This document shows positions 1,697 through 64,000 of a stretch of DNA of 64,000 nucleotides, in pieces. The DNA lies in contig OZ237752.1 in NCBI GenBank assembly GCA_965178125.1, positions 1 to 64,000 on the forward strand, read 5' to 3'. How positions within the stretch are numbered: the stretch's first letter is position 1; the number at the start of each line of letters is the position of its first letter. Position numbers and translations under genes: made by a program. The DNA comes from Bilabrum cf. latius (taxonomy: Eukaryota). The notes beneath the pieces were generated by a model. It was not told the origin of the DNA. It was given only the letters and a program-made list of their open reading frames with translations, and did not search any database.

Positions 1697-1756
1697 GACA
1701 AAAATTGAAGATGAAAATATTTTTTCCCCGACCCTGTCCCTGACTTTATAATAGAT

Positions 1757-3061: not shown

Positions 3062-3256
3062 CGAGTCGACTAGGTTTGTGGGGCCAGCGCATGTCTGCCA
3101 TTTCACGAGGCCACTGGTGACACAGCCCGCAACAACAAACTGTTGACTTTGTTGCTTCTCTTTCTCAATTGCCGAAATGCCCAAAATTCAAGTAGAATAC
3201 AGGAGGCTATGTGTTCACTCTAGCATTCTTTGCCATTTGAACCTGTTCATTGACGA

Positions 3257-5638: not shown

Positions 5639-6042
5639 CCCAGGGGGTCCCCAATTTCAACCGGACCGCGGCAAGGAAAATCTAGATTTGGGTACATATT
5701 AGCACGCAACAATTGACTTCGCGAGGTTTTTTACAGTCCTTGCAGCTGCATCTTACTAGGAAGGTACCCAGGTAAGAGACTGGGTGTTTACTTTACTATC
5801 CCTTTACTTCTTTGTGCGCTGGGAACGTTGAAACAATGCCGTCGTGGGTGTTTGCTGGCCATGTTGTTGTAGTCGTTGAGTCGTGGGTGGTTTGCTAGCG
5901 AGGCACTCAACGCACTGATCCCTGATTGCAAGTCTTTTCAGAAACGGTCCTTGAGTCTTATTGTAAATCTGGCACTCTGTGCGTTTGCGCTATTATTTCG
6001 TTCTAATCGGTTGGCTACATCGTGCTATCGCAGCGAACCGCC

Positions 6043-9066: not shown

Positions 9067-9303
9067 CAGTATCTTGCTAGAGTTGCCGTACCGGGCGATT
9101 TTTGTGCCGTTTCTGCACCTTACAATAGGTATAACCAGACTTGGCAATAACAAGAATAGATACAGCTCGACATCAAGATCTAAACGAGTAAGAATACTTT
9201 TGTTGCCATAATATCTGATTTCATGTTCATCTGCGCGCGTACATACAACCGAACTTCCTGTAACGTACCCTTGAGTCCTGATTTCCCGCCCGGCGTTCGC
9301 AGG

Positions 9304-28201: not shown

Positions 28202-29218
28202 TCAGCGCGCCCCAATCACCAGCCCACGCCCAGCCGCCCCCTCCTGCGCCCCCAGCGCCGCCTCCACCCTCGCCAGCCTCGCCGCCAGACTGCCCCGCGC
28301 CCTCTCCACGGCATGCAGCCGCTGCAGGTGGGACTGCAGCGCGCGGCGGACGCTCTGCAGGCCCCCGCCCCCTCCAGACGCCCTTTCTGCCGCCGCCCTC
28401 TCCGCCCTTGCTCGCCTCGTCAACGCGCGGACGGCAGCCGCAAGCTCACCCGCCCGCCGATCCGCCGCCCGCAGCCGCTGCACGTACCGCCGCCGGCTGC
28501 CGGCCCCGTCCCCTGCCGGCGCCCCTGCCTCCTGCCCGCTCTCTATCCCCAACTCGGCCCCCCTCTGCCTGAGCTTGTGCTCCACGTCGTCCAGGGCCTT
28601 GCTCACCTCGGACTGCGCCGCTCGCACTCGCTCCAGCTGGCCCGACAGGCCGCGCGCCTCGCGACGGAGGGCCGCATGGCGGCGGGTGGCTTCCACGAGC
28701 TGGGCGGAAGCGCGCCTTCTAGCTTCTTCCCAGCGTCCAAGCGCCTCTGCCTACTTTCGGAAAGCTTCTCGGTGCACTCGCAGTCGCCTGGACCACGTCG
28801 ACAAGACATCGCGCACCGCTGTTGCCGAGAGTGCTCCAAGCTTCTAGTCAGCTTCTTTCGCGGCTTCCACGCGTTCAGCATAATCACCTATGTCAGCCGA
28901 AACAACAGGGGCGGCTGGTGCAGGCGCAGGGGTGCCAGAGCCAGATTCTTTGCTTTCGCTAGTGCCACCGTCTGCCGGTGCCGGCGCCGGAGCTGATGTA
29001 TCCCAATCTGAGGCAGCCGCTCCCGCGGAATCGCCTGCTTTACTAGAATCATCAGTTTTGCTCTGGTCAGCTGGAGCTGGTGTTGGCGAAGGTGAAGGCG
29101 CTGCTGCTGAGCCTCCAGGCGTGTCCCATTCTCCAGCCCCCCAATCATCTGTGGAGGGAGCTGGTGCCGGTGTACCTGAGGTACCAGTATCACCCCAATC
29201 TGCGCCCCAATCTGTCAT
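28202..29218 (-). CDS. NUP62: Nup62/Nsp1-like coiled-coil nucleoporin lacking FG repeats
   Basis: VRDVLSTWSRRL...FRK[TAG]AEALGRWE...LSGQLERVRAAQSEVSKALDDVE matches the Nsp1_C pattern (I..W...L...F..QA..I..WD). In-frame TAG at 28844 and 28751. Ends TGA. Confidence 0.7.
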
Positions 29219-29489: not shown

Positions 29490-30287
29490 TCAGCAAGCAC
29501 AGCCGCCCCCGCTGCCGCCAGAACCCGCGCCATCCCCGCCCTTCGACAGATCAACACGATCACGCGCCGCGTCCTGCCTAGAAGCCCCGTCCCTGCCTCC
29601 GTACCCGTCGTCGCCACCCGGCCCTGCCGTTGGCCCCGGCCCCGCCCCGCTCCCCCCGGGCCCTCCCCCCGCCTGCCCCTCCATGGCCGCCTGCTCCCGC
29701 TCCAGCTCTAGGTCCTCCTCCATTACGGCGCGGGCCAGCGCCGCGAACACTTCCTCCACGTTCTTGCCCGTGGCAGCCGATGTCTCGTAGTAGACTGCCC
29801 CGATCTCCTCCGCCGTGGCCTCCGCCGTGTGCTGCTCGACCGCTCGTCGGTCCTGCAAATCGCACTTGTTCCCCACCAACGCAACCAGGATGTCCTCGGG
29901 TCCATTTCGTCTCAGCTCGTCCACCCAGGACTGCAGGCAGTCGAAGGATACCGCCTTGGTGATGTCGTATGCCACGATCGCGCACCGGGCGCCGCGGTAG
30001 TACATGGGAGCCAGCGATCGGTATTTTTCCTGACCCGCAGTATCCCAAATCAAGAATTTTACTGCCTATCCGTCCACGAGAACTGTCCGATTCAAGAACG
30101 CAGCCCCGATGGTAGACTGCGAGTACGGGTCGAAGTGACCACTCACAAACTTCTACGCAAGACTAGATTTACCAACTGCGGCGTCACCAAGTAACACGAC
30201 TTTAACTTCTTTCGGAGCTGAAGCTCCACCGCCCTGTCCAGGTCCACCCATCCCGCCACCCCCGTAGGGATCTCCTGCTCCAGCCAT
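29490..30287 (-). CDS. Rab5/Rab22-group small GTPase
   Basis: KVVLLGDAAVGKSS, STIGAAF, WDTAGQEKYRSLAPMYYRGA, VGNKCDL, ETSA, C-terminal CAC. In-frame TAG at 30153 and 30066, inside the G domain. Ends TGA. Confidence 0.95.
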
Positions 30288-37087: not shown

Positions 37088-38826
37088 TCACTTCCCGCTG
37101 CCGCTGCTCGCAGCCGCACCTTCGCCTTCCCCTCCACTAGCACCTGCTGCGGTCTTGCTCTCCACCCCAGCCCTGCCCTTGCCATCCCCCCCGGCGCCCT
37201 TCTGCATGGTTGCAATGGCCCCCATCATCCCCCCGCCCTCGCCCAGGTCGGCCCCCAGCGCCCGCGCCACCTGCTCCATGTCCTTGTCCCCGCGCCCGCA
37301 CATGTTCACCAGCACCCTCTTCCCCGGGCCCAGCTCCTTGGCAAGCAGCATGGCGTGCGCGATGGCATGGGATGGCTCCAGCGCGGGGATGATGCCCTCG
37401 CACTTGGACAGGGCCTGCAGCGCGCCGAGGGCCTCCTTGTCCGTCACAGACACGTACTCGGCCCGCCCAATGTCCTTCAGGAACGAGTGCTCGGGGCCCA
37501 CGCCGGGGTAGTCCAGCCCCGCGCTGATGCTGTGCGTCTCCGTGATCTGCCCGTCGCCGTCCTGCAGCAGGTAGGTCCTCGTGCCGTGCAGCACCCCGGG
37601 GGACCCAGCCGACAGCGTGCTCGAGTGCTTGCCCGTGCCCACCCCATCCCCGCCCGCCTCCACGCCCACGAGGCGCACCTCCTTGTCCCCCACGAAGCCC
37701 TCGAACATCCCGATGGCGTTGCTGCCGCCCCCCACGCACGCCACCACCGCGTCCGGAAGCACCCCTGCCTGCTTGAGCATCTGTGCCCTGGCCTCCCTCC
37801 CGATCACCGACTGCAGGTCACGCACGATGGAGGGGAAGGGGTGCGGCCCGATGGCCGACCCGATGATGTAGTGCGTGGTCTCCACGTTCGTCACCCAGTC
37901 CCGCAGCGCCTCGTTGATTGCGTCCTTGAGCGTGCGGCTGCCCGACTCGACCCCCACCACGCTGGCGCCCAGCATGCGCATGCGGAACACGTTGAGCGCC
38001 TGTCTCTGCATGTCCTCCGCCCCCATGTACACGGTGCAGTCCAGGTCCAGCAGGGCGCAGGCAGTGGCGGTGGCCACGCCGTGCTGGCCTGCCCCCGTCT
38101 CGGCGATGATGCGGCGCTTGCCGATGCGCTTGGCCAGCAGCCCCTGCCCCAGGGCGTTGTTGATCTTGTGCGCCCCCGTGTGCGCGAGCTCTTCCCGCTT
38201 CAACCAGATCTCCGCGCCGCCGACCTGGTCGGAGAACCGCCTAGCCAGGTACATGGGAGTGGGGCTGCGAGGGGGGCGGGAGAGGAGATGGCAATGGGTG
38301 GGGGTGGCGGAGCAGTTACACGCTTCAAGCTACTCAAACACTCTCAAGAGATAGCGATAGCCACCAGGTTCGCATGACAAAACCGGCAAGCATCGGATGA
38401 CGGGGCGCTGTTGTGGCGCCGTAGCCGTGACGTACCCGCCTCCACTGAGTTTCGTACCGCCGGCACAGTCAATGGCGCGGCATCTCACCGTCCAATGTAA
38501 TCGCGCCCAAGAGTCTCGAACTCTTCGCGAAACTTCGGGTCCTTGCTAGCTTCCACGTACAGCGTTTCTAGCTGTTCGTGGGCCCGCATCAGTGTCTCGG
38601 GGATGAATCGCCCGCCAAAGTCGCCGAAGCGAGATTTGAGAGCCGCTTCATCCTCATAGATAGGCGGCGCATTAGTGATTTCCAACACAGGGTTGTCGAT
38701 GTGAACAACCTTGTAGCGCTCCGTGCCGGCGTCGATGGCGGCCTGCGTTTCAGCAGTCAGAGGAACATCCTTTGTGACCGCGATTGGTGCCGACGAGACC
38801 TTTGACTCTTCCGAACTAGCTGACAT
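37088..38826 (-). CDS. trpB: Tryptophan synthase beta chain (stand-alone)
   Basis: [70 protein letters not shown]. Intron 38265-38488. Ends TGA. Confidence 0.97.
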
Positions 38827-39022
38827 TTGTAATATTCGCGTGCAGATACAAGTAATAAGGGCAAAATGTCCTTCAAAAGGCCTCTAGAGTGCAAAGATCG
38901 ACCGGGCGCAACCTTTCCCGTGGTTGGACCCGGAGCGAAATATTTCATGGACTGTGCTGCCGCTACCGCAGGAAACACTGTGTCCCACGGTACCCCAACC
39001 AATTTCACGCGCTCACACTCCC

Positions 39023-42514: not shown

Positions 42515-44605
42515 ATGGAGTGCCCGCAAGTAGTACTCTTGATTGATACCCGAGAAGTGATCCGAAAGTCGTCTCGAAATCTCTTTCACCTCAAACTACG
42601 TGACAGCGGCGTCGAGGCCGAGACTAGGCAGCTTGCTCTCGGTGACTTCTAGTGGGTGGTGCGGTGCCGCGAGAAACGTTCAGAACCTATAGTTGAGTAT
42701 GTTACAGATTTTATAGTGGAGCGCAAGACCGTGAATGATTTGGAGGGATCAATTGTAGACGGCAGGTATGAGGAGCAGAAAGTAAGGCTGCGGGCGTGCC
42801 CCTGTCGCAAGGTCATGTACCTCGTAGAGGGCAACCTCACTGCAAGACGTCTAGGCAAAGACGCTATCGAATCGGCTCTGGCATCAACGGTGGGTATAAG
42901 CGGCTTGCACGTGCGCCACGCCGACTCAACGGATGACGCAATTCGACTCCTCGCCTCGATGCATCGCGCGATCCGGGGCGAGGTGCTCCGGCAGTGGGCA
43001 GAGACAGTCGGGAGCGAACCCGCCTCCATTCCAGCGACAGCCAGCAGCAGCAGCAGCAGCAGCAGCCGCCCCACGCCCTGGTCCATGTCTGCCCCTCGCT
43101 CAGGAGACGGCTGGTCCCGCTGGACCCGATGGCTCCGGGGCTGGCTCCCCCCGCTGCCACTGCCACTGGCATCTCCCTCTCTTGCACCCGCTCCTGGCTC
43201 TGCCCCTGGCCCAATGCACTACGCAGCCTTCGCGCGGGAGTACTCGCGGGGCTCCTCCCGGCGCTCCCTGCTGCAGTGCTGGGCCGCCATGCTGCGGCAG
43301 GTCCCCGGCTGCAGTGCTCCCCGTGCCCAGGCAGTGCTGGCCAGGTGGGCCACTCCCAGGGCGCTTCTCCGGCGGGTTCAACAGGTCGGTAGCGAGGAGT
43401 TCGCCACGGAGGTGCAGGCCCTGCAGTCGGAGGGCAAGGCGGGGAGAAGGCGGCTGGGGCCTGCGCTGGCCCGTGCCCTGGTGGCAGCTGTAGGGCACTG
43501 CGAGGCGGCTCCTTGCAGCCACGGCAGTGAGGGCTCGTCCTCGTTCTAGTCGTCCTCATCCTCTCAGCCGTCATTGACACCCGCGGGTGGCAAATTTTCA
43601 GCACCGCATGCACCCGGCCACGCAACGCCTGATGCACCCATCAGCCCAGCCAGTAACAGCAGTCAATGCAGTAGGAGCGACAGCGATGAAGACGAGTGCA
43701 GTGCCGAGAGCGCGGGCAGCTTCAGCGGTGCACACGCCCCTTTGCGGTAGAGGCTTCTGCACCGCCGAAAGCCCCAGCAGGCCAAACGCCAGGCAGGGGG
43801 CGAGCCGTCTCAGTCTCCTTCCAAGCGTCCTGCTGGCAGCTCGGAGGGCCCTGCAATGAAGGCAAGGCGGCCTGGGCCACCACCTCTGTCGCCTCCCCTG
43901 CTATCGAGTGGGTCATAGGAGACTGCCGCCAGCAGCAGCAGCAGCAGTAGTAGCAGCAGCAGCGAATTGGATGACTCCGGTATGCGCATCCCAGGCGAGG
44001 GTGACACGAATGCGAGGTCACCGATGGCCGCCTATGGCCAAGGAACAGGCATGGTGGTGGACCTGTGTTCCCCAGATAGCATGCCCCCGAGCGGCTCCAT
44101 GTCCAGGTCGAGGAAGAGGCACAGACCGCAGGGCGGGAACAGCCACAGGCACAACAGCGCCACCGCTGGGTCTATGCGGAGCCCGCCGTTCGAGCAGATG
44201 CACCCATCCGGACAGGCGAGGCCAAGCAGGGGTCAATCCTCGCGGCATTCCAAGCGCAGGCGAACTAGTGATGGCCCCTCCTCGCCCCTGGGCTCCCCCT
44301 CTGCCGGGGCGGAGATCGAGATCGACCTGTGCACGCCCAGCACGCGAGCCAGCACGCGAGGCACGGCCACCACCGGGAGGGCATCCATGCCCATTGCATC
44401 CGGTGGCAGGGGGTCAGCGAAGAGCATCCCCGCGAGGAGCACCGGTCGCAGGCCGGGCGCATCAGGCCGCACAGGGGCAGCGGGGCCCGGCAGCACTCGT
44501 GCCCACACCAGTGAAAACTCACCGGCCCTGGCCCGAAAGGTCTAGTTCGGAGACGGGGAGGCGGGCAGTCCGGGAGAGCCCCAGCGCTCCCCTCACGGCG
44601 TGTAA
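42515..44605 (+). CDS. MUS81: MUS81-like ERCC4 endonuclease with a long disordered tail
   Basis: LLIDTRE, LALGDF[TAG]W, IVERKTVNDLEGSIVDGRYEEQKVRL, YLVEG, then HhH-like MLRQVPGCS...LGPALA. TAG at 42650, 43547, 43748, 43916 and 44543. Ends TAA. Confidence 0.85.
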
Positions 44606-44667: not shown

Positions 44668-46797
44668 TCAGCTCACCACGCAGCAGCACCGCCCACCCCC
44701 AGCCGCAGCTGGACCTGCCTCGGTTCCTCCGTCCCGTGCAGGCGACACGTGCATCGCCGCGGGCCGCCCGCCGTCGGACTACGCCTGGGAGGACGCTTCC
44801 GGTTTCCCAGCCTGTCCCTACCCAGCCGCGAGCGCTCTCCCATTACCCCCATCACCCCCATCGCCCTCGCGCTCGCAGTGCACGGCCACTCCGCTGCTGG
44901 AAGCCACCGACTGCCGAGATGCCCCTGGGTTGCCACCTCCCAGGCCATGCCCCCCAGCTCCGCCTCCCGTTTTCGCACCCGACCCAACTCCCGCGCCCTC
45001 CTTGGCCTGCAGAGCGGCCCGCAGGCCAGACACACTGCTTGTCCCCCTCACTGGGAGGGACAGCGACATGGGCTCGGCCCAGCCCTCCATGCCGTCATCC
45101 TCGTCCTCGTCCTCGCTCGCCCCCTCCCCGCCCCAGCCCATCAGCTTGCGGTGCATGCGGTCCTGCTTGTGGTCGCCACTCCCACTCCCACTCCCGTGCC
45201 CGTCCTCCGTGCTGCCTGCACTGCACGCGCCCGAAGAGCCGCCATCGGACTATGACCCGTCGCTGTCCCCGTCCTCGCCCGGCATGCCCTCCCACTCGTC
45301 ATCCACATCCAGCCAGTCGGGGTTCAGCGCCTGCCGCCGCTCCGCCAGCGCCTGCAAGTTGCCCATCAGGCCGGACCGGGTCCCCCCTCCCGCACGGTCA
45401 ACGCCCGCCAGCGGACTCCCGTTGCTCCCCGCCGCCAGCCGAGCCATGAGCGCCAGACCCACTGGTGCGCTCTCCGTGGGACGATGCCCCGGCCCCGGGC
45501 CCATCCACTCGTCCCCGCCAGGGCCGGGGGCCCCCTCCACCTCTGCGGGGTCGAATGGACCCCAGTCCACCGGTGGAGCGGGCGACTCGCAAGCCGGCGC
45601 AACATCCACCACACCCCCAGCTACCCGTCCGGCTTCTCCAGCCCCGGCTCGGGCGACCTTCAGCCAGCCGAGCTCCTCCAGCGCGGGGCGCAGGGACAGG
45701 CGCTTGGCGGTTTCGGCTGAGAGCCCCGGGAGCCCCCTGGCTCCGTGACCACCGTGACCCCGCAGCGGGGACACGCTCGCGCTGCGACCCCCTCGCTGCA
45801 CCAAGCCCCCCGACACCCCGCTGGGGTCAGACAGGGCCCGCAGCGCGGAAGACGCCCGGCTGTCTCCCACCCGATCACCAGCACCCAACCCCAACCCCGC
45901 CCCGTCACCGTCCCCATCATGGGGGGGGGCCATTGCAAGGTGTGCCTCCGCCGCTGCCTGTGAGCTGGGGGGAGGGGACCGCTGGGGACCTGCGCTGGTG
46001 GCCCGTATCCCCTGGCTGGCGGCGCCGCGCGGCAGTCGAGGCCCGTTCGGAGTGAGCTGCACCCCGGCTGCCTCTGCCAGCGCCCACGCCCACCGAGAGG
46101 CGAGGGCGAGGGCCGCCTTGTCGGACGAGTCGGCGGGGGCGCCGGGGCTGCGCTGGGCGGACTCGTGCGTGCTGGATGCAGCACTAGAACTTGATTCCTG
46201 GTCGCTCGGCTTGTAAAATACGGCGCAAGACGGAAGGACCGACGGAAGGCTGGGCGGCGCGCGATGTGCGGCGCCAGCTCCCAACCTGCGGCTCTACCCC
46301 GCCGCGCCACCGATTTTATCGCCTGTTACATGAACGCTCGCACTCTTGCTTGTTTTTAATCCAACTGCGTTCTGCCCTGCCACTTGCCCCCTAGGGGAGC
46401 GCGTGCGACGCATGGCAGCAACCGCTTCAGCGAATTCGGCAGCTGCGAGACAAACTCTTAGTTTGCTGAACCGCAGAAACAGGAATCGCGTGGGCCCAGG
46501 TACACCAACTGCTGAATCAGACGAATGTGAGCCCAAGCTTCCGACTGCGGTAGACTGTATCCTCAAAGTCTGCAGCATAAGCATGTGCAAGCTGCGCAGC
46601 AGCGGGCCAACCATCCTAGGGTGCTGGACGGCATCCGCAGGCTCGCTACTGAGCTTAGCGGTTCGAAGAACTATTCCAGTTGGGCTCAATAACAATGCGC
46701 CTGTCAAGGTTGGCAGGGCAGCCAGTCGTCTTGACCCAGTCGCAGCCTCCGTTTCGCGCTTGCTGACATTGGCATTTTCAGATGATAGCGAGGACAT
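44668..46797 (-). CDS. Hypothetical protein (about 709 aa) with a C-terminal CaaX motif (CCCVVS)
   Basis: Three listed ORFs share one frame and are joined by TAG at 46294, 45250, 44818 and 44779. Ends RCCCVVS-TGA. Confidence 0.6.
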
Positions 46798-47085
46798 GCG
46801 CAAGCCAGGAGATCAAATAAGTATATTAAGTATAAAAAGGGCCAAAGTATGGTACCCCCGCCGCAAAACCTGAGCTGTGAGCTACAGTGGATTGTGGACA
46901 CGGATGATTCGTTGGCCGCGCAAATTCGAGCTGCGGAACCAGAAGCCGAGGAGCACCACAAGGTGCATCATGTCTCTGGCTGCATGCATGTCGCACTCAT
47001 GTATTGTGTGCCATGCTCGTCGATTAAGCGATAGACCAATTGGTTGCACCAAGTGTTTTGGACGAAAATCTCTCCCACCTACCAG

Positions 47086-48267
47086 TCAAAGCTCCTCGCT
47101 GCCTCGTGGGGTATCACCAGCGGGAACCTCTGCATCCCCGTCCCACAGGTCCTCCCACCGCTCTCCAAGCTCTTCCCTCACGTGTTGCTGCCCTCGGATG
47201 AGCCTCCACCCCTGGTCCAGCCCCCGCAAGCTCTCCATGTCCTCCTCGCCCAGCTCGAAGTCGAACACCCGCAGGTTCTCCTCGATCCTAGACGGGTTCA
47301 CGCTCTTGGGGATCGCAACTGTACCGTCCTGCACCGCCCACCGCAGCAACACCTACGCGGGAGACCTCCCGAGCCGAGCCGCGATGTCCTTGATCACGGG
47401 GTGGGCCATGGGCACCGGGTCCTCGTTCCTCTAGTGCCGTGATGGACGGTCCGGTGAGCCCAGGGGGGAATACCCCGTGAGCACGATGTTGTGCTCGTCG
47501 CAGAAAGCCTTGAGCGTGGGCTGCTGCAGGAAAGGGTGCCTCTCCACCTGGTTCACGGCGATGGGGGCAGTCAGTGGAGCGGTTCCTTCCTCCAGCATGC
47601 GGGCCCCCGCTCCCCACTCGTCCTCCTCGCGCGTGGGGGGCACGTCTGCATTGAACACATCCAGAAAGTGCTTCAACTTCTTGGTTGAGAAGTTGGACAC
47701 TCCCAAAAATCGGACCTTCCCATCGTTTACCAGCCTCTCCAGCTCCCGCCACACCGCGACGATCCTGTCCTTGTCGTAGCCAAGGGGAACTATCGAGCCA
47801 TCCTGCGACTTCTCCGCGGCACATGGCCAGTGCAAAAGGACCAAATCGACGTAGTCTAGCTGCAAATCTTGGAGCGAAGCCGTCACTGCCTCGTATACCC
47901 TCCCGACGTGCATGTCTGTTGGCATCACTTTGGTGGTCACCCACAGGTCTTTGCGCCCAACAGATCCGTTCACTGCTGATAGAGCGTCCCTGATTCCAGC
48001 GCCAACCTCCTCTTCGTTGCCGTACGCTCTGGCACAGTCGATGTGGCGATAGCCACTTAAGATGGCGTGCTTGACCGCCGCACGGACCTTCCCTGGCGCG
48101 CTCTGCCAGGTTCCTAGCCCAATGGCAGGCATCTTGATTGATCCTACAAGCCCGGAGTCGCTTTCAAACTGTTCCTCGAGCGGTGCCATAGTTTCGGCTG
48201 CAACTGCCACTTGGCAAGCTGGTAGGCAAATCGCGGCCATCACAGCCCACAGCGATAACGCTTGCAT
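47086..48267 (-). CDS. Aldo-keto reductase with signal-peptide-like N-terminus
   Basis: MPAIGLGTW, GYRHIDCA..YGNE, DLVLLHWP, LGVSNF, NQVERHP, YSPLGS, SPA[TAG]VLLRW, IPKS. TAG at 47431 and 47353. Ends TGA. Confidence 0.93.
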
Positions 48268-48443
48268 GGTGACGTAGTAAGAAGCCCAATTATTACTAAG
48301 TAGTACTGGCGGGCGATTCAGCAGAGGATCTGAACGGTCACAAGGCCCCGATTTAAACTCTATTCAATTCGTTGGATTGGATCGAAACGAGAAGAGAATG
48401 AGAACTAATAATCGCACGAATTGGACATGTGCTCGCGAATGAC

Positions 48444-51400
48444 TCATACCCTCGATGCGGCCTAGAAGCCTGGTTTGCCTTTGCTTGGGGTAGATGTGCT
48501 GCTGCCTGCCGCGGCTGCATTCCCCTCCGGAGCGCTCGCCGAGTTGGTGGCCGGCGTGCTGGCCTTGCTCGCGTCTTCCTTGGATTGGTCCCCCACTGCC
48601 AGCTTGAACGTTGTCGCCAAGGAGAACAGCGGCAGCTCGGTCCACGCGTCCCCCCAGGACTTCCCGTCCAGCACGCCCCGGATCAGCAGGAACCAGATGT
48701 ACCTGTAGGCCGCGTCCAGCACGATGAGCGCGGTCACGACAAAGGACAGGATGGCCAGCAGACCCCAGGCATCCCTGGCTTGGTTGTTCAGCGCCTGCAC
48801 CACCAGCTCGGGCATGGACTCGAACACGAGCTCGCTCACGAGCATCTGCTTGAATGCCACGGGCAGCAGAGCGCTGGCAGCGACAGCAGCTCCCGCAGTT
48901 GCAGCCCCGTCTGCCTCGTCCGGGATCTTTGCCTCCAGGTCTAGAGTCCACACCTTGATCCACACAGCCTGCACCGGGCGCAGGGCCAGCAGTCTGGTGG
49001 CATACAGCAGCATGCCCGTCGCCACGACAAGCCCCAGCGCCAGCACGCTGCCCACGAGGAAGAGCACCAGTGCCAGCAGGGACAGGGCCCAGTACAGGGG
49101 CTGCAGCACGAGCACCAGGAGAAACTTGCCCAGCGAGTCGTTCTCTTCGAAGGGAAGCAGCCAGGGGCTGGAGGACGTTGCCTTATTCCAGGCCTCCACG
49201 CCCATCATGTCCCCGATGGCGCCCCTCAGGAGGCCCATGCCGATGGGAAGGGCGAATAGCAGCCGTAGGCCACCAGGAATGCCAGCACCAGCACGAAGAG
49301 CAGGACCAGGAACGCGCCCGAGAGAGCTACAAGCAAGACCATGTACACGGCCTGTAAACCCAGGCCCACGAGACACAGCGCCAAGCTGATGCAGCCCATT
49401 ACGAGAAAGAATGGGAAGAGGCAGACGAACGCTAGCAGCCACACGATCATGGTCTCACAAGGCCCGTCTCCCTCCAGGTCCTCTGCCACGCTCTCTGCAG
49501 AAGAGGCTACAAACGCCGGAGACAAGAAAGCGTCATCCTCCCCGATCCACTCTCCCAGCATCCCAAGCGGCGCGAACAGCACCTCCGAGTCGGTCAGGCC
49601 CTCCCACATGCCGGCAATCAGCTCGAAGGCGGCGTCGAATGGATCCCAACCGAGGATTGATTCCAGATCAGACCACTCCTTTCCCAGCGCCAGAGTCTGT
49701 CCCTCCTCCAGCCCCCGCGGCAGCAGCATCACCAGGGCAGGGTCTCCCTTGAGCGTGATCAGGAACGGCAGCACGGGCACGATCGCAAGAGACGCAAAGC
49801 TCGCCCAGAACAGTGTCTCGCTGTGGTACTCCTCCGTGAACGTGTACAGCACGTCCGTCGCCAGGTCGGCGAAGGCGATGCCAACCAGCACGAACGAGTC
49901 CAGGTCAGCTCCGGCCAGCAGCAGCCCCAGCATCATGATGGCCCCTGGGATGGCGATCCCGATCCCGACGGTCAGCTCGTCCCACTTGGGCCCCGGGGTG
50001 CAGATCTTCACGCCCGTGCTGCTCTCGATCACATTGCCAGTGAAGTCATCGATCTCGCGCTCCGTGATCTGGGTGCGCACCAGGCCCCACGGGAAAGGGC
50101 AGGACGTGCAGTTGTACCGCGAAAACCCATCGCATCGCTGGCAGGACTCGTGGCATGGAAAGCACACGCGATCCAGCTGGGAGGCAGGAGGGTGCAGAGG
50201 ATAGCGACCGTCGGCCCACGCCTGAATCTCGGCACCAGTGGCGGACACCGCAACAGGCTTACTCCCGGCAGCATCGTCGTCATCGTCACCTCCATCATCG
50301 GCGGCATCCTGCGAGCCGGTTCCGTCAGCCAGTCCCCAGCTCACCAGCGCGTCCTGCAGCTCCTCGAGCCAAGAAGGCGAGCTCGCAGATCGGGGCTGCA
50401 GCACTGGCAGCTCCTCGATGGGCGTGCCTGTCTGCTCGTGGAGGAACTGCGCCGCTGATGCCCGATCGACGCCAAACATGCCATCGCCGCAGGCGCGGCA
50501 GGCCCGGTCTCCGTACAGCGTGGGCCCTCGTGCCTCCTCGCTGTCTCCGGTGCACACCGTGGGCGCACTGCACTGCGGCTCGGCTAGCGCACCTCCCGTG
50601 TAGTACGCGACAGACGCATCCTCGCCGCATGCTGCCGTGGAGCGATAGTCCAGGCCGATGCCTGCCTTCGACAGCAGGAGCGCGCCGACTCTTTCGGCCT
50701 GGGGGAGCGAGGCAGACCCCAGCGGCTGCACTGGGAGCTTGTAGTCGCCATGTAGGACCAGGCTGTGGTTGACCCGAGTGGCCGTTGCGTTGACCAGACT
50801 CGGGTCTGCATCCGCCGCCATGGTGTCTCGTCGCACGGCGGCTCTGAGCAGCTCGTAGGTCTCGGTGGAGCGCTTGAATCGGATCTTGCCGATAGAGACG
50901 TCCAAGGTGCTGTCGCTGCTCGCCGTGTCGGACGACTGGCTGGTCGACGTGTGGTCCAGCGCGTAGCCAGCCAGAATAACGCCCGACGGGGAGGACAGAT
51001 CCGGCGACATGGACACGAGCAGGTCGCTGTAGGCCGTGACGGAGTCGGATGCGGCGGAGGTCTGCTGCCGCTGCGGCGAGGCGATGCCGAATTGGCCGAT
51101 GGTTGCATGGATTGCGCCGTGCCTGGACCGCACAAGCTGCGGCACAGTGCCTCCGAACCGGTCTGCCACGGACGCCCCTGCGCCCTGCCCGAGTCTTCGC
51201 ATCGCCTCTGCGCGGATCCAGACCATGGATAGTGCCGACAGGGAGCCTGTCGCACGATCCATGACCCAGAGGTAGGTCTGCGAAGCGTCCAGCGTCATGT
51301 CAACCAGGCCTCTCGGCGAGTCCAGCACGCCCACGGCGGCCCAGACCCACCCACCGCCCTCACTGGGCTGGTGCCCCGCCACGAGGACAGTCTTGGTCCG

Positions 51401-52795
51401 GCGACACACGTCCTCGACGGCCTGACCCCCGCCAGTGGTCCCCCAGATCATGTCTTCGTCGTAGTGCAGCGTGGTCAGGACCAGCGGGCTGGCCCGCATG
51501 CCTCCATCCCCCCCAGTGCCCTCGAACGCGTACAGAGACACGGGGCCGAAGCCCGAGGGCTTGCCCAGCCCCAGCCCAGGGGCCAGCGCGCTGCACCTGG
51601 CCCTCGCCGCCAGCGGACTGAGCTGGTCCTGCCCCGCCACCGCCCTCTCTTCAAGGACGGCCATCCTGTCGAGCAGAGGGGCGTCAGCGGGCAGCTGCAC
51701 AGGGAGATAGCTCCCGTTCTGGGCGGGCCGGGCGTGGTCAATGTCCTCGCTGTGGGCGGCAAGATCCACAGACCCCGCCGCGTCCACCACGGTGGTTGGG
51801 TTCACCTGCCACCGCAGGGACTCCTCGGGAGCGGCTGCCTCCGCTAGTCCATCGAGGAAGAACGGGTCCTGGGACTCGGTGCCCACCACGCGCATGAGCC
51901 AGAGGCTGGGCGGGTAGGAAAATCCCATGGCCACCATGGTGCTGCCCCGGAGGCTCTCTGCGGCCTCGGTCTCGAGCGGAAGGGCGGCCATGCGGCTCAC
52001 GCGGCCCAGCGCAGTCAGGTCGGAGCCGGGTCCAAGCACCCCGCGCAGGGCGGCGGGCTCCAATACAGCCGTCATGGAGCCGCGAGCAGGGCTCAAATTG
52101 TCTGGTCTGGATACCTGGGACCACGCTGCGGCATCATCCTGCAGCTGCTCGTGGACAGCGAACACGGCAGAGCGCATGGCGCTGTTCCCGTGCCTGGCCC
52201 ATTGCACGCGAGCCAGGCCGGGCGCAATGCTGCTGCCACGGATTCCCACAGCGTGGACAGGCAGCAGAGTGGCTCCTGTTATTGCGTCGAACAGGATGGG
52301 CACCGGCGGCAGGACGGACGCCCAGCGCAGCGGAGTCTGGGGATCGCTGAGCGATGCAACAACCCTCGCAAAGTTGCTGCCTGCCCTGGCGTCGAAAAAG
52401 CCCTTGGTAATGCTCCACGCCTCAGCATGGATAGGGTTTAAGTCCTCTCCAAAGGAGAAAACACGCAGAGCGCCGCGAATCGCATCTGCTGGCAGGCTCT
52501 CCAGCGAGCCCGAATCGGCTGCAGCAGCATTCACGTCCAGAGGGCTCGTATACATAAATGCCGCGTCCTATGGGAGGGCCAGCACGCACGATTGCGTATC
52601 TGATGCAATGCCATCCACCGGCTGCAGGGCTGCAGGAACAGAACTATTCGAGCTCGATGAGCAGAGGAGACCGTCGACATCTGCTGAGTCGGTCGATCTT
52701 TGAATCCAGGCATCTAGTCTATCAAGAGCACCATGTACACCATTGGATGCAAACACAATTAGTGTAAAATAATATACGGCCATCGTCGGCGACAT
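48444..52795 (-). CDS. Large type-I/multipass membrane protein with furin-like Cys repeats; apparent 1-nt frameshift near 49263
   Basis: Signal peptide, long ectodomain, CFPCHESCQRCDG...CTSC, then many TM segments and ELVFESMPELVVQALNN. TAG at 52568 and 48462. The frame switches within GCC TAC GG CTG CTA. Ends TGA. Confidence 0.7.
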
Positions 52796-53000
52796 GCACT
52801 CCCCCACGCGCAAGATATGGGTCGCAGGCGCCCATCAGCTGTACACACAACTTGGTCGCATTTGGAGCCTCTGATGAGTGGAGACTGGCAGTTGATGGGC
52901 CCAAGGTTGATGGCTTTGTCCCATCACCTACCCACACTTCTCCACAGGAAGCTGCCAAACAAACAATATCTTCATTATATCATCGATCCCGATTCAGCCC

Positions 53001-54341
53001 TCACTCACCAACCTTCCCTTCTGCTGCTGAGCCTCCCTCGGCACCGCCAGCTGCCTCGGCTGCCTTCCTCCTGGCCTCCCCTGCCTCGGCTGCCTTCCTC
53101 CTGGCCTCCCCTGCCTCGCGGTCTGACTCATCGTCCCACAGGTCCTTCCAGTCCTGGCCTTCCACCGTGAATTCAATGTCCCCGTTCGCCAGCCGCTGGT
53201 GGTAGTCCAGCCCCCGCAAGCTCTCCATGTCCTCCTCGCCCAGCTCGAAATCGAACACCCGCAGGTTCTCCTCGATCCTAGACGGGTTCACGCTCTTGGG
53301 GATCGCAACTGTACCGTCCTGCACCGCCCACCGCAGCAGCACCTGCGCGGGAGACCTCCCGAGCCGAGCCGCGATGTCCTTGATCACGGGGTGGGCCATG
53401 GGCACCGGGTCACCCTCGTTGATGAACCGGGCGGGGCGGTCCGGGGAGCCCAGCGGGCAGAAACCCGTGAGCACGATGTTGTGCTCGTCACAGAATGCCT
53501 TGAGTGTGGGCTGCTGCAGGAAAGGGTGCCTCTCCACCTGGTTCACGGCGGGGAGCACCTTGAGCGGCTCGTCCGGCCCTCCCCCCTCCAGCAGAGCGGC
53601 GAGCTTCTTGGAGGTCATGTTGGAGCAACCGATGTGACGAGTGAGTCCCTTGTCCACGGCCTGCTCCAAGTCCCTCCACACGGCCAGGTAGCTCTCGGGC
53701 GAGTAGCCCAGCCGCTCCGACTTGGGCGGCGGGAAGCTCGAGGGGTCTTGCTTCCAGAAATAGGGCCAGTGGATCAGGACCAGGTCCAAGTACTCCACGC
53801 CGAGATCCTTGAGCGTGTCTTGGATCCTCGGAATGACGAGGCCCGGGTGGCACAAGTGCACGAACACCTTTGAGGTGAGGAAGAGGTCCTCCCGCTTGAC
53901 CACGCCGCGCTCGAACAGGTCCTTCAGGGCTTCTCCAACCTCCTTCTCATTCCCATACGCGTGCGCGAGATCCAAATGCCGGTATCCAGCCACCTCGATT
54001 GCGTGCTTCACAGCCGCGGCGACCTTGCCAGTCTCGCTCTTCCACGTGCTGCGACTCGGAGGGAAAGATCGTGTGGGCGCCGGTGGGATGATGGCTGCCA
54101 TGCTGGACAAAGCGCTCGCATCGTGATGGACGTTCAAACCAAACCAAAGAACCCTAAATTACTAATTTTGATGTTCGAGGTTCTTCCTATCTGCTGTTCG
54201 GCCGTCTGGCCGACACAGGTTGAACCGACGTTGAGCTCACCCTAGCCCGATCTGCGGCATAAGCGCTCCAGTATACAGCTTTAGCGATGCTGATTTATGC
54301 GCTTTGGTCCTGGGCTCTTCAGCATCGCCAACTCCAGCCAT
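53001..54341 (-). CDS. Aldo-keto reductase (cytosolic type)
   Basis: MPQIGLG|TW, GYRHLDLA..YGNE, DLVLIHWP, IGCSN, SPAQVLLRW, IPKS. Intron 54049-54240. Ends TGA. Confidence 0.95.
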
Positions 54342-57200: not shown

Positions 57201-59720
57201 ATGATATTTGTCAGTCCTTTCATCATGTTGGCAAGTGCTGTACTTGCATTGGATCCGCCAGCCAAACCCAATTTCTTGTGAGAGTCGTCCCACCGCAATG
57301 CCTTTTCGGTTCTGTCCAATGTATCTATCTGCCTGAGCCGGCAGGAACGACTGTGAATCTCTTCAGCTGATAGTGCATAATCGGTCGTCTGTCACAGGTT
57401 TCTGATGGTTGATGACTTGCGCGTGGACCTCCCGAAGTACCAGACCAGCGCGCCGATCTTTGCGCCTCATTTCAAGCGCTTTGCCGAGCAAAGCGCAACA
57501 TTCCGGCGCGCTTACACAAATCAGGCCGTGTGCTCACCGTCTAGAAACTCGTTGCTGACCGGTTTGCGCCCGAACAGCACGGGAGCCATCTAGTTCATCG
57601 ACCACGCGAAAGCGCCTGTTTGCCTGCCAACAGAGGGGCGGACGAACTACTTTGGGAACGATTTACGGCAGTTCAACTGGCCAAAATCGATGGGAGCCTC
57701 ATCTGCATGCTGTGATGCGTGCACCAGGGATCCACAGTGCTCTTTCTGGACGTACAACTACGACAAGCAGGTGTGCTTCCTCAAGACGAGCGACTCGGGC
57801 CGCAAGCCCCAGAACAACACGGTATCGGGGCCCTCAGGACGAGCAGTTCCCACGGTGTCACTCCCCCAGTACCTCAAGGAGCACGGGCAGTACCTGTCCC
57901 TGGGCACCGGCAAGATCTGGCACCCGGTGAGGACGGTCCCGTCTCCTGCCCATCAAGCCCTGTGCCACATGCCCACGATGTCGGACCACCGCCTTTCGTC
58001 CTCCCTCTCATATCATTTTCTTCCTTTTCCTCCCATCTCCACCCCCTCCGCATCCCACTACCCATCCCATTCCCCACCCCTATCCACCGCGCAGGAGGAG
58101 GGCGGTTTGGACGGTCCTGGCCTGGTCCCCAACATGGACCCTCCGTCCTGGACCAACGCGAGCATTCAGTACCCCGCGAGGCTCAACGAGACGGGCGAGA
58201 CCTGTCCATTCGGAGAGGGCTTCACCAACTGCTACTTCATCCCCCCCATGCCCGGTTGTCTTAAGGGGGGCACCAACGCGAGCCATGGCGTGGTCTGGGC
58301 AGACGAGATCCAGCGAGCGTGCGGGATGAACGCCTCGCTGGACGGGAGCACGGACCCTCCCAACCAGCTCCTGTTCGCGGACCGATCCATCGCGCTGGAC
58401 GCCCGCCGCAAGATGCAGTACGCGAAGCACAATCTCGACAGCACGGGACAGCCCTTCTTCCTCGCCGTTGGGTTCCGCAAGCCGCACCTGCCCTTCCGCA
58501 CCCCGTGGGAGTGGCTCAACACCTCGTATCCAGACTGGGAGAAGCTGCCACTGGCCCAGCAGCGCGTGCTGCCGCCTGACGTCCCCCCCATCTCCCACCA
58601 CGACAACCGCTGGAAGGACGCATCCTCGCTCACAGAGCCCATGCCCAACGCCACCGCGAGGCTACTGCGGGCTGCCTACTACTCGGCGATTTCGTGGATG
58701 GACTCGCGTCTCGGCCAGGTGTTGGATGACCTCCGGGACATGGGGCTGGAGAACAACACGGTGGTGACCCTCGTGGCGGACCACGGGTGGAACCTGGGTC
58801 ACCAGGCAGCGTGGCGGAAGTTCGCGTTGAACGAGAACGCCGTGCGGGTGCCCTTCCTGGTGCGTGTGCCCTGGCTGCAGGGCGCCTCCCGAGGTGCCAT
58901 GCTGGAGTCCATCGTCGAGCTGGTGGACCTGTTCCCCACGGTGGTGGACCTGGCGGGTTTGCCCATGCCCAGTCGCGCCCACGGGCAGCAGAACTTGGAC
59001 GGGCAGTCCGTCGTGCCGCTGCTGATGGCGGCGGGGAACTAGAAGGGGAGTGGGCGAGGGGGCGAATTGAAGCACCGCAACGGGGATACTACTTAGTCAC
59101 CCGCGGAGCAGCCAGTCGCTGGTGGCGACAATCGTCATGGTGACGGCGGTGCGGCTGGTGGTGCAGCCCGGCCTGACCCGTGGGACCCTGCGGGTGGAAA
59201 GGGGTACGCCCTCAGCGTGTATCCCCGGTGCCCTGCGGACCCGGTTCCCTCGCACGACCACCTGTGGCAGGACAACTGGTGCGAGTTCTACGACAGGACG
59301 GTTGTTCCCTACCTTGGCTACTCGCTGCGAGTGCCCGGGTGGAGGTACACGTACTGGTGCGCGGTGCGGTGGAACGGGACTGCCCTGCTGCCCGCGTGGG
59401 GTGAGGGCGCGCTGCCACGGGATTCCTTCGGGTATGAGGAGCCGTGGGTGCCCGAGGGCGGCTGGGATGCGGTGCGGGAGGGCGCGGGGCTCGGGCTGGA
59501 AGAGCACGAGCTGTGGCGCTCGTTGCAGGCCGGCATGCGGGGAGACGCGTGCATCGGCGAGGAGCTGTACGACCACGGGGGCGCTTCTGGTGGATCGGAT
59601 GATCGGGAGGAGGACCTTGACTCGATCGAGGGGGAGAACCTGGCGGACCAGCGGCCGGACATCGTCGCGCAGTTGAGGCTCAGGCTGCAGGAGCTGTTCT
59701 AGGGCGGGTGGCTGCAGTGA
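57201..59720 (+). CDS. Iduronate-2-sulfatase-like sulfatase with inserted PAN/apple domain
   Basis: PNFLFLMVDDLR, FGly motif CSPSRNSLLTG, GKIWH, VGFRKPHLPF, ADHGW, RVPFL, ELVDLFPT, GYSLR..WRYT.W. Introns 57278-57397 and 57927-58094. TAG at 57591, 59040, 59094 and 59700. Ends TGA. Confidence 0.92.
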
Positions 59721-60412: not shown

Positions 60413-63400
60413 ATGCCTACCAGCCGCGGGAGAGCGCAAGGCGCGCAGCTCCCATATGCAACGAACAAAACCTTGCCGGGCGAGCCCCCGAGCCTACAAC
60501 GCCCAGCTAGAAATTCTACACGACGCACAGCAAGATTGTTGCTTACTATTTTCGTGCTTGCGCGGTGCGAGGCCTTTTTGCCTCAGGACTAGTCGAAAAC
60601 GGAGACGGATCACATCTTTGGGTGAGGAAGACTTATCTCAAGAAAATGCACGATGAAACAATTTAAAATCCCGCCCGAGCCGGCACAGCGTATTTTGGTT
60701 TAACGCTGTTCTCCGCGCGCGCACAGGCACTCGACCCCTACCTATAGTCCGCAGCCAGCGGCTGGGCGGCAAGCAGCAATGCTTGATGAGTACCAGCCGC
60801 CGGCGCTAGGATAGCACAAGCACTGGCAGCATGCAAAACGCCAGCTGTCAGAATCATCTAGCATCTATCACCGCACTATCGATCTGAGCAACAGCGACGG
60901 CAAATGGGTCACGGAAACGCAGGCGCATACGGTGAACGGTAGGCAGTTTAGCACAGCGAGCGCCACGGTGGTCGACCGCAAAGTCACCCTCTCACAGACA
61001 CAGTGTGCCGAGGCGAGGGCCTACGTGTCTCTGGGCAAACTGGAGGGCGATGTTTCCTTCGCATACAATGCCACCATGACCAAGACAAACTTATACACGC
61101 AGCAGTTCCATGTATACCTCGTGGCAGGGCAGGACCTGACAAACTCAACGATGCTTGCTGGAAAGTCTTGGGATGTAACGGCCAGAAGGGTCCACACCCT
61201 GCGCGCACTTGGGTTGCAGGGCGATCAGCAGGTGTGGATTTTGATCCGGTCGTGGGCCTACAACGCCGACTATTATGGCTGCCGCCCTGCTCATCTAATC
61301 TACAACACCGTGCCGGGGCCTCCAAAGTGCGGAACCGAATCTTATTGTTCCTCAAGCCCCCACGGCACTGGCGTGCTGACTGTGGACTTTGAAAAATGGA
61401 GTCTCCAGGTACAATTCAGGCCGACCCCAAGCCCAACCACAACTCCGTCCCCGACCCCGACCCCGACCCCGACCCCGAGCCCGTAGTGGTTCGTCGGGCT
61501 TTCCGAGGACGAGTACGTGGTGGATCCTGCCAGCGTGCCCGCGGGGTGGTCCTTGGCGACGGAGGCACACGTGGTTGATGGGACCCTGTACGACGACGCA
61601 GAGGCGGTGTTGCCTGACTCTGGCGGCAACCGTTCCGTGCACCTGCAGCAGTCGGGGTGTGCCTCTGCCCGTGCGACACTCGCCCTCGGGTACTTGCAGG
61701 GTGACGTGGTGGCCATCCTGAGCTTTGACTGGATTGCCAATGTAATGGAGCCGCCCGCGGAGCTGCACTTCATGCTGCTGGCTGGCAGTACTTTGCTGGC
61801 CGGGGGGTAGGCCACCTCTCGGGGGTTGGGGCAGTCGGTCTCCCTGCGTGCGGCTGGGCTGGATGGCACTCGGCGCATTGACCTGCTGGTGCGGCTGTGG
61901 CCCATCAGCGCCAACTACTACGGGTGTCCAGGGGAGGGCCCTCACATCGTGCGGCAGCCTCCTTATCGATCAACCTCGTGCGGGGTGCTGCCGCAGTCCA
62001 ACTGCACCCTGGCGATCGGCAGCAGCACCTCGGCCACTGTGCGGATCGCGCCCCAGAGCATCAAGGGCGACGACGGGGGCGGAGAGGAGCTGACGGGCGT
62101 TGACCTGCTGTCCATGGCGGGCGCAGATCTTGTGTTCGGGTTCAACGGCACGGGGTGCGGGGAGGCAGGCGAGGCGTGCGCAGCAGGTGCGCGGGCTTTT
62201 GGGGCCAACTGCACGGACATCATGGGTCTCCCTGGTGGTGGCGTTGGCTGCGGCCTCCGTGGGGTGGATCGGCTGCGGGTTGGGTCAGAGCAGGAGTCTG
62301 CTCTGATCCGGAGGCGGGGCTCGGGGCCACATCGCGTGCTCGCGTATCTGGATGTGGCTGGAGGAGTGCCGGCGGCCGCGACGGAGCTACGACATCAGAA
62401 GATATCAGCCACCCAGGGCGGCTTCACGGGGCAGCTGGATAATGGTGACTACTTCGGCATTTCTGTGGCATCGCTGGGGGACCTGGACGGAGACGGGGTG
62501 GTGGATATGGCTGTAGGGGCAGTGAATGACGGTGATGGGGCCTCTGGTAGAGATGCGGCGTGGGTGCTGTTCCTTCGATCCAACGGCACGGTGAAGTCGC
62601 ATCAGAAGATATCAGCCACCCAGGGCGGCTTCACGGGGCAGCTGGATGATAATGACAGGTTCGGCTTTTCTGTGGCATCGCTGGGAGACCTGGACGGAGA
62701 CGGGGTGGTGGATATGGCTGTAGGGGCAGTGAATGACGATGATGGGGGCAATTATAGAGGGGCTGTGTGGGTGCTGTTCCTTCGATCCAACGGCACGGTG
62801 AAGTCGCATCAGAAGATATCAGCCACCCAGGGCGGCTTCACGGGGCAGCTGGATGACTATGACTACTTCGGCTTTTCTGTGGCATCGCTGGGGGACCTGA
62901 ACGGAGACGGTGTGGTGGATATGGCTGTAGGGGCAGTGCATGACGATGATGGGGGCAATTATGGAGGGGCTGTGTGGGTGCTGTTCCTTCGATCCAACGG
63001 CACGGTGAAGTCGCATCAGAAGATATCAGCCACCCAGGGCGGCTTCACGGGGTAGCTGGATGATGATGACTGGTTCGGCATTTCTGTGGCATCGCTGGGA
63101 GACCTGGACGGAGACGGTGTGGTGGACATGGCTGTGGGGGCACTGAATGACGATGATGGGGGCTCTAGTACGGGTGCGGCGTGGGTGCTGTTCCTTCGAT
63201 CCAACGGCACGGTGAAGTCGCATCAGAAGATATCAGCCACCCAGGGCGGCTTCACGGGGTAGCTGGATAATGGTGACAACTTCGGCGTTTCTGCGGCATC
63301 GCTGGGAGACCTGAACGGAGACGGGGTGGTGGACATGGCCGTGGGGGCACATCAAGATAATGATGGGGGCTCTGGTAGGGGTGCGGCGTGGGTGCTGTTC

Positions 63401-64000
63401 CTTCGATCCAACGGCACGGTGAAGTCGCATCAGAAGATATCAGCCACCCAGGGCGGCTTCACGGGGCAGCTGGATGACTATGACTACTTCGGCTTTTCTG
63501 TGGCATCGCTGGGAGACCTGGACGGAGACGGTGTGGTGGATATGGCCGTGGTAGCACATCAAGATAATGATGGGGGCTCTGGTAGGGGTGCGGTGTGGGT
63601 TCTTTTTATGAACAACAGCCATGTGGCCCGAGCTCAATACCCCTAGATCTCACAGCCGTTGCCACCCAGCCAAGCGCATGCCATAGAAGGCTCGGCAACC
63701 AGACTGCAGGGAGGTGCTTGCTCTTTGGAGTCCTCGATTGGAGCCGTAGGTGGCAGTAATTCTCATGTGATCGTGCTGGAAGCCTCATGTGACTCGATGG
63801 CATCTGGCGGGGCTGGCATGCAAGACGCAAGCCAGGTGCACCACTCGTGGCTCTCTCGAGGAGGGTATCGCGTAAGGATGGGTGTCGGGTACGGATCTAG
63901 CGCGCCGACCCTATCTGAGCCTGGCACCTCCCCGGATGCAGTCCTGCTGCAGGGGAGCGCAGTGTGCTCCCTTGGGGACTCGAGGCAGGGCGATGGCAGT
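60413..64000 (+). CDS. Large FG-GAP repeat surface protein, running off the window
   Basis: One frame from about 60750 to the window end, interrupted only by TAG (60812, 61484, 61808, 63053, 63260, 63644). The 5' exon 60413-60621, with TAG at 60590, is tentative. Contains a PT linker and six FG-GAP units. Confidence 0.8.
62393..63610 (+). repeat. Six 207-bp (69-aa) FG-GAP coding repeats
   Basis: HQKISATQGGFTGxLD..D.FG.SVASLGDLDGDGVVDMAVGA...GA.WVLFL starting at 62393, 62600, 62807, 63014, 63221 and 63428. Confidence 0.95.

Follow-up and report, generated by a model that had tools for sequence, protein, structure and literature searches.

Nuclear genetic codes in which UAG specifies glutamine have been described from more than one lineage. 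In the fornicate Iotanema spirale, as set out in the accessible part of its description (PMC5304391), UAG specifies glutamine and UAA is kept as a stop codon, serving in fact as the primary one. The ciliates Hartmannula sinica and Trochilia petrani are given the same UAG assignment, with UAA as the preferred stop, in the available portion of a second study (PMC11687900). Codes in which UAG and UAA differ in meaning appear as rare in the excerpts of both papers, where they bear on the mechanistic coupling of the two codons, and the same excerpts record UAG as leucine in the nuclear codes of the rhizarian exLh and of some phyllopharyngean ciliates (PMC5304391; PMC11687900). Both TAA and TAG specify glutamine in NCBI table 6, the code of ciliates, dasycladaceans and Hexamita. 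Genetic code 15, in which TAG specifies glutamine, is assigned to crAss-like phages in the part of the source at hand (PMC9523058).

Here we analyze the first 64,000 nt of contig OZ237752.1, a whole stretch referred to below as the window. It is a eukaryotic nuclear chromosome end, GC-rich and intron-poor, in which tightly spaced genes follow the terminal repeats. Two of its genes, AKR-A and AKR-B, encode aldo-keto reductases (AKRs), and at one conserved position AKR-A has TAG where AKR-B has CAG. We put a probability of roughly 0.8 on the reading that the two genes are old paralogs whose 3′ cores have been homogenized by ectopic gene conversion, in an organism that reads TAG as glutamine. As in I. 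spirale, so far as its code is laid out in the text cited, UAG alone is seemingly reassigned here, to glutamine, and TAA ends 3 of 25 genes. Unlike I. spirale, in which that text makes UAA the primary stop, the window has TGA at 22 of the 25 gene ends (the status of TAA being read from only 3 of them), its sequence is GC-rich and intron-poor, and its aldehyde dehydrogenase (ALDH) groups weakly with stramenopiles and not with metamonads. With H. sinica and T. petrani, on the portion of the study quoted, it shares wide use of UAG for glutamine and a UAA that has not been reassigned, but those species are ciliates that prefer UAA, whereas the window is an ordinary chromosome end bearing (CCCTAA)n repeats and TGA is its usual stop. 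TAG as glutamine is held in common with NCBI table 6; unlike under that table, in-frame TAA is not seen in the genes of the window. The code 15 phages, as described in the available text, match in codon and in residue but infect bacteria, whereas the locus studied here is eukaryotic and nuclear, with a telomere, spliceosomal-type introns, eIF3c, Sin1, Skp1 and NUP62.

The two reductase genes share an orientation at a distance of 5,990 bp from each other, about 47 to 54 kb from the chromosome end, and are built as follows.

47086..48267, minus strand: AKR-A coding sequence, intronless, 393 codons and a TGA stop, with two in-frame TAGs (codons 279 and 305)
54241..54341, minus strand: AKR-B exon 1, MAGVGDAEEPRTKAHKSASLKLYTGALMPQIGLG
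54049..54240, minus strand: AKR-B intron, 192 nt, GTGAGC...GCAG, interrupting the IGLGTW motif between IGLG and TW
53001..54048, minus strand: AKR-B exon 2, with the PF00248 domain and the TGA stop (53001-53003)

Both proteins matched Pfam family PF00248 with scores far above the cut-off of 24 bits (170 bits for AKR-A and 161.3 bits for AKR-B), and AKR-A aligned to solved aldehyde and aldose reductases with an E value of 1.8e-73 (aldehyde reductase 4gac). They were 57% identical to each other by BLASTP (198/347) and 60% identical over 348 aligned positions when the spliced form of AKR-B was used. They contrast at the N terminus, which in AKR-A is hydrophobic and signal-like; in the C-terminal tail, where AKR-B contains a 30-nt tandem repeat at 53051-53118; in the single intron of AKR-B; and in a stretch of about 20 residues inserted in AKR-A. 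The two-exon model of AKR-B is one that we infer from the sequence alone: the open reading frame (ORF) as listed (53001-54137) has an N terminus without the GLGTW motif, and removal of the intron recovers MPQIGLGTWKSETGKV.

A sequence-only reading of the window had reported a near-identical 207-bp block in the two genes, differing at three sites. The coordinates and the count were correct. Positions 47215-47421 and 53205-53411 aligned over 207 columns without gaps and with 3 mismatches, at columns 46, 135 and 141. On the coding (minus) strand these mismatches are GAC/GAT for Asp (A codon 336), TTG/CTG for Leu (codon 307) and TAG/CAG (codon 305). The last places TAG at 47353-47355 of AKR-A opposite CAG at 53343-53345 of AKR-B, at the glutamine of SPA-Q-VLLRW, and this codon-by-codon reading was borne out in frame. 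The extent of the similarity was understated, however: the 207 bp describe the block itself, but blastn carried the similarity to 47215-47560 against 53205-53550, about 346 nt at 92.6% identity, in which a further block and a patch make the tract a mosaic. We compared codons and nonsynonymous (dN) and synonymous (dS) divergence by segment, numbering on the codons of AKR-A and leaving the TAG codons out of the patch and of block 2.

A codons 40-236, minus strand: 5′ part, 172 aligned codons, 240 nt differ, dN 0.54, dS 2.33
47476..47559 (codons 237-264), minus strand: block 1 of AKR-A, AVNQVERHPFLQQ...LTG, 84 nt with 3 synonymous differences, dN 0, dS 0.18
47422..47475 (codons 265-282), minus strand: diverged patch of AKR-A, 54 nt; 18 nt differ in 17 TAG-free codons, with 8 residue changes, dN 0.35, dS 0.96
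47431..47433, minus strand: second in-frame TAG of AKR-A (codon 279), within the diverged patch, in a variable column
47215..47421 (codons 283-351), minus strand: block 2 of AKR-A, 207 nt of which 3 differ, dN 0, dS 0.04 (68 TAG-free codons)
A codons 352-393, minus strand: C-terminal tail, 41 aligned codons, 65 nt differ, dN 0.78, dS 1.86
53205..53549, minus strand: AKR-B tract, with block 2 at 53205-53411, the patch at 53412-53465 and block 1 at 53466-53549

The two blocks together had a dS of 0.08, and the values of 2.33 upstream and 1.86 downstream of the tract agree with the earlier description of the 5′ halves and C termini as well diverged. Tandem units of an FG-GAP gene aside, the tract is the sole dispersed repeat listed past position 3200 of the window.

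Identity of this kind might arise without any conversion, from protein constraint combined with strong codon bias. The blocks are the most conserved part of the fold, and their G+C content at third codon positions (GC3) is high, at 0.89 to 0.92. However, the 5′ core (A codons 50-234) is equally catalytic, and there identity at same-residue codons was only 34 of 77, compared with 91 of 97 for the blocks (Fisher p = 1.7e-13), while dS drops from about 2 to 0.04-0.18. The near-identity is therefore not a product of constraint and codon bias, an explanation that we consider extremely improbable.

Interlocus (ectopic) conversion between dispersed paralogs is a general mechanism, and on the sequence comparison it appears to fit the mosaic tract best. 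The locus resembles such conversion in having an internal tract of near-identity, silent sites included, between paralogs in cis that are otherwise saturated; it differs from the general case in that the tract is a mosaic with a 54-nt diverged island. Since the tract is internal, with saturated divergence on each side, it argues for conversion without crossover and not for segmental duplication. The sequence-only reading had offered gene conversion or chimeric duplication, and gene conversion is supported. GC3 in AKR-A is 0.68 in the 5′ part, 0.71 in the patch and 0.68 in the tail but 0.92 in the blocks, and in AKR-B it is 0.80-0.88 outside the blocks and 0.89 inside, which suggests that AKR-B was the donor and AKR-A the recipient. 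The patch may have been left out of the conversion, or it may have diverged again afterwards. If it was never converted, there may have been two separate events or patchy heteroduplex repair. The blocks may be of separate origin: the codons that differ number 3 of 28 in the first and 3 of 69 in the second. The patch may be the loop that covers the cofactor in aldose reductases, which would give selection a reason to keep it paralog-specific.

The TAG codons might mean simply that the standard code applies and that AKR-A is a pseudogene, or a fragment at the level of annotation, with two nonsense mutations, the TAG of codon 305 being a disabling C-to-T change. Translation table 11 does break the AKR-A frame at codons 279 and 305, C-to-T at CAG is a common mutation, and two synonymous differences out of just three in block 2 are a weak sign of selection. 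The rest of the 393-codon frame is nevertheless open, free of TGA, TAA and frameshifts, and the catalytic tetrad (D77, Y82, K113 and H146) is intact in AKR-A as in AKR-B, in columns that are D 100, Y 99, K 100 and H 100 among 100 homologues. The unconverted core of AKR-A was 47.7% identical to these homologues, against 46.6% for that of AKR-B, and dN/dS was about 0.23 in the 5′ part. On these comparisons AKR-A does not look like a dead gene, and the codon is in any case not peculiar to it. With ORFs called on TAA and TGA stops and TAG as sense, the window contained 48 in-frame TAGs over 16 ORFs. None of the 25 gene ends was a TAG, where some would be expected if TAG were a stop, but this zero, like the absence of in-frame TAA, is partly circular because the ORFs were built with TAA and TGA stops. 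We regard a disabled AKR-A under the standard code as highly improbable. Small introns excising the two TAGs were also considered as a candidate and rejected, codon 305 lying inside a conserved motif aligned to solved structures.

Taking TAG as a sense codon, we asked which residue fits its positions. At AKR codon 305 the column holds Q in 98 and A in 2 of 100 homologues, with Leu in none, and Q stands there in 134 of 136 domain alignments and in all 3 of the PDB alignments listed. Judged from these alignments, codon 305 is the strongest single datum for glutamine. The sequence-only reading had called the TAG/CAG pair at this site the cleanest identification of the amino acid; that holds for the column, but the pair alone does not settle the residue. 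Three other genes bear on the question.

28205-29218, minus strand: Nsp1/NUP62-like nucleoporin, two TAGs, codon 155 at 28754-28756 (our own arithmetic)
29493-30287, minus strand: Rab-type GTPase, TAG at codons 45 (30153-30155) and 74
62393-63600, plus strand: FG-GAP repeat protein, 207-nt units, 5.8 copies, about 91% identity

Codon 155 of the nucleoporin aligned to Q in 4 of 4 PDB alignments (NUP62 and Nsp1), codon 121 of an ABC transporter aligned to Q in 6 of 10, and codon 45 of the Rab gene is Q in the closest full-length relative (P0369, 58% identity). We then calculated substitution profiles for 20 query residues from the same alignments, using the 7 TAG columns with at least 10 aligned residues and giving each a weight of one. 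Q had the best summed score of the 20, at −18.43, which put it 2.8 units ahead of R (−21.22); K (−21.24) and E (−21.33) came close behind R, and the per-column scores of L summed to −26.44. Because Q tops the seven-column sum, glutamine is the best reading, by a margin that is modest but consistent. With Q also at the nucleoporin column and no TAG among the gene ends, the earlier assignment of TAG to glutamine holds, and the interpretation put forward with it is supported.

Several columns weigh against glutamine. Among 240 domain alignments, ABC codon 645 (5438-5440, plus strand, by our own arithmetic) is V in 86, I in 53, L in 42, S in 41 and Q in none, so that V, I or L accounts for 181. 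Mus81 codon 46 (42650-42652, plus strand) is L or V in 4 of 4 PDB alignments, and at Rab codon 45 L outnumbers Q by 64 to 13 (of 208). AKR codon 279 has K 59, gap 18, V 8, I 6, R 4, A 3, T 1 and H 1 among the 100 homologues, with no Q, and sulfatase codon 63, in a variable column, is D, D and S in the aligned solved structures. The TAGs of the PP2C gene lie outside the stretches aligned to solved structures. The ABC search returned mostly double-length ABCB proteins, giving good coverage for the nucleotide-binding-domain column only and little on taxonomy. The three hydrophobic columns (ABC 645, Mus81 46 and Rab 45) are the main data contrary to glutamine, and they do not overturn the summed score.

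The pairs of TAG and CAG at equivalent sites should likewise not be overrated. In the FG-GAP protein the Q of GGFTGQLD is encoded by CAG in 4 of 6 units and has TAG in 2 of 6 (63053-63055 and 63260-63262, by our own arithmetic from the unit starts), with the 16 surrounding codons otherwise identical at every base; the units point to concerted evolution within the gene. Such pairs, the TAG/CAG difference between the AKR paralogs and TAGs within polyglutamine runs are all weak evidence on the residue, because C-to-T makes TAG from CAG whatever TAG means.

It follows from the hydrophobic columns that TAG might instead be a sense codon for another residue, such as leucine, or be decoded ambiguously, and nuclear UAG as leucine has the precedents cited above, as far as the excerpts go (PMC5304391; PMC11687900). 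Leucine, though, scored well below glutamine over the seven columns and is absent from the column of AKR 305, and the nucleoporin, ABC codon 121 and the closest Rab relative all favor Q. We therefore find a different or ambiguous residue quite unlikely.

The codon is spread throughout the coding sequence of the window. In-frame TAGs occur from 1% to 99% of ORF length, in genes that include the ABC transporter, Rab, Mus81-like, sulfatase, nucleoporin and FG-GAP genes. Pfam domains run across them, and taking TAG as sense merges many genes into one long frame each. Of the Gln-type codons, TAG accounts for 14 of 210 within conserved-domain segments and for 32 of 395 in segments of poor conservation (p = 0.63), and because the shares are similar, TAG is not restricted to disposable sequence. 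Flanks of 50 coding-like codons on both sides were found at 14 of 172 TAG sites, 0 of 233 TGA sites and 1 of 45 TAA sites.

One arrangement of TAG may be due to chance or may hint that the codon still terminates close to 3′ ends. In two genes, the membrane-like ORF between the AKR genes and the PAN-sulfatase, TAG stands six codons ahead of the TGA (48462-48464, minus strand, and 59700-59702, plus strand); by our own arithmetic the frequency of in-frame TAG predicts about 0.6 such genes, against the 2 of 25 seen. Some TAGs could therefore still be acting as stops, and the codon might have a dual meaning, glutamine within genes and a stop near the true 3′ end, through context-dependent termination. 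This excess is small, however, and the TAGs are evenly spread up to the last 1% of ORF length. The base that follows in-frame TAG (G 17, A 10, C 11 and T 10) shows no marked bias, and a clear TGA closes 22 of the 25 genes. Several of the gene ends are natural ones, an example being the Rab protein, which ends in CAC. A dual meaning is in our view unlikely.

The Rab gene supplies an outside view of the same codon. A public protein, P0361 (188 amino acids), is 99% identical to it but begins at residue 79, right after the TAG of codon 74, as a standard-code gene caller would have it. Because P0361 starts just past that codon, an independent gene prediction evidently met the same TAG. This bears on a further doubt about glutamine decoding and conversion alike, namely that assembly or polishing produced the near-identity or the TAG as an artefact, with the reads of one paralog correcting the other, for instance. 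A short read could span either block (84 and 207 nt). Yet six differences and a sharp-edged patch persist in the tract, all of which blanket homogenization would have erased, and in-frame TAG is general in the window as well as present in the independent Rab prediction. An artefact is thus very unlikely.

We next considered TAA. The sequence after the TAA ends of the ABC and Mus81-like genes scored as noncoding (ABC tail −0.26, Mus81 extension −0.25). The conserved genes of the window yielded no convincing in-frame TAA; the one TAA with coding-like flanks among the 45 sites, a small sample, is antisense to the Sin1-like gene. CAA is about one-tenth as frequent as CAG, and by our own arithmetic a handful of sense TAAs would therefore be expected if TAA also encoded glutamine. 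TAA as a second glutamine codon was accordingly rejected as having no support, and from the 3 gene ends that it forms, TAA probably remains a stop.

No tRNA gene and no Rfam family was found when the 64-kb window was scanned for them, and because these scans were empty, the decoding tRNA must lie outside this window. The window likewise contains no eRF1 gene.

These results lead us to propose the following history for the locus. AKR-A and AKR-B would be old and, to judge from their sequences, functional paralogs. Interlocus conversion without crossover, apparently from AKR-B to AKR-A, would have homogenized part of their 3′ cores, leaving two near-identical blocks on either side of a short patch that stayed, or again became, paralog-specific. 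The organism would decode TAG as glutamine, with TGA as its main stop and TAA probably as a minor one. After the conversion, one transition between CAG and TAG, in either direction, would have occurred at the near-invariant Gln codon. Because TAG is read as glutamine, this change would have been silent and would have been kept, like the two other synonymous differences of the block. The decoding agent is presumably a tRNA-Gln with the anticodon CUA, as would be expected from the literature.

The DNA between the two reductase genes carries no recognizable domain.

48447..52813, minus strand: DNA between the AKR copies, two same-strand ORFs, no Pfam match
48447-49454, minus strand: membrane-like ORF
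49226-52813, minus strand: ORF of 1195 amino acids, coding score 0.29 for 49229-52813

These two ORFs, which lie in different frames and share about 225 nt, both contain membrane-like segments. A single gene carrying an intron or a frame problem may account for the two.

At its start the window is telomeric, (CCCTAA)n occupying 1-884. Directly after it, 884-1696 holds 5.2 copies of a 155-bp repeat; 1757-2923 is a further array of CCCTAA type, and 2924-3061 holds 2.4 copies of a 57-bp repeat. A 451-amino-acid "ORF" at 1746-3101 is the repeat translated (GLGLGL...). The coding sequence of the window has a GC3 of 0.77. Pfam matches beyond these repeats were to an ABC transporter, BTB, 3-hydroxyacyl-CoA dehydrogenase, alpha-galactosidase, eIF3c, PP2C, the Nsp1/NUP62-like nucleoporin, the Rab-type GTPase, NAC-alpha, ALDH, MAPEG, Sin1, Skp1, a Mus81-like ERCC4 nuclease, both AKRs, an RTE1-like protein, the PAN-sulfatase, the FG-GAP repeat protein and a pyridoxal phosphate (PLP) enzyme, which from its sequence reads as a tryptophan synthase beta chain.

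Several of these genes have features of their own. The 3-hydroxyacyl-CoA dehydrogenase gene (7731-8768, minus strand) has an intron-like insert of about 130 nt that starts with GTGAGC, the 5′ splice motif of the AKR-B intron, and contains an in-frame TGA at 8304-8306. The genes for alpha-galactosidase (13355-14770), the BTB protein (6007-7439) and the tryptophan-synthase-like protein (37091-39012) likewise seem to be split. A Gly/Gln/Ala-rich protein at 9223-11214 (plus strand), which lacks a Pfam match, has five in-frame TAGs, and those at codons 501 and 515 lie within CAG-encoded glutamine runs. In the Mus81-like gene (42515-44605, plus strand) the ERCC4 domain is at the extreme N terminus of the ORF and is followed by a long Ser-rich tail with a poor coding score. 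After its TAA end come 381 stop-free codons, which overlap a better-scoring minus-strand ORF at 44668-46803.

The ALDH gene gives a hint of the lineage. Its protein has a relative at 88% identity; the best hit with a name is Cafeteria at 49%, and other stramenopiles come next at 47-52%. In a quick tree the window sequence fell with Cafeteria inside a stramenopile group, the relevant forks having SH-aLRT values of 85-94 and one being drawn open; the placement with stramenopiles is a hint from this one sequence. The available text of the Cafeteria genome preprint mentions a nonstandard code for the mitochondrion alone. The openly accessible full-text papers that were searched yielded no report of UAG as glutamine in stramenopiles, bicosoecids or GC-rich flagellates. 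Our suggestion that the source of the window is a heterotrophic stramenopile close to the bicosoecids, with nuclear UAG alone as glutamine and UGA as the main terminator over UAA, and that this lineage and configuration are absent from searchable papers, is accordingly a tentative one, held at rather less than even confidence.

UAG-to-glutamine codes are already known, and the AKR locus is a pair of ordinary reductase paralogs; its value is as an internal witness for such a nuclear code. The pair forms a compact internal control within one locus, in which a paralog-specific peptide can be sought downstream of the TAG, and its tract is a clear small case of mosaic ectopic conversion sparing one patch. 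For annotation, standard-code gene calling cuts many proteins here: the AKR-A frame stops at codon 279, and the public Rab prediction begins past a TAG. The window also provides an assembled chromosome end to work from for a code with UAG as glutamine. If true, a GC-rich nuclear genome with UAG as glutamine and UGA as the main stop would stand in contrast to Iotanema and the phyllopharyngean ciliates, which prefer UAA in the portions of their descriptions cited above.

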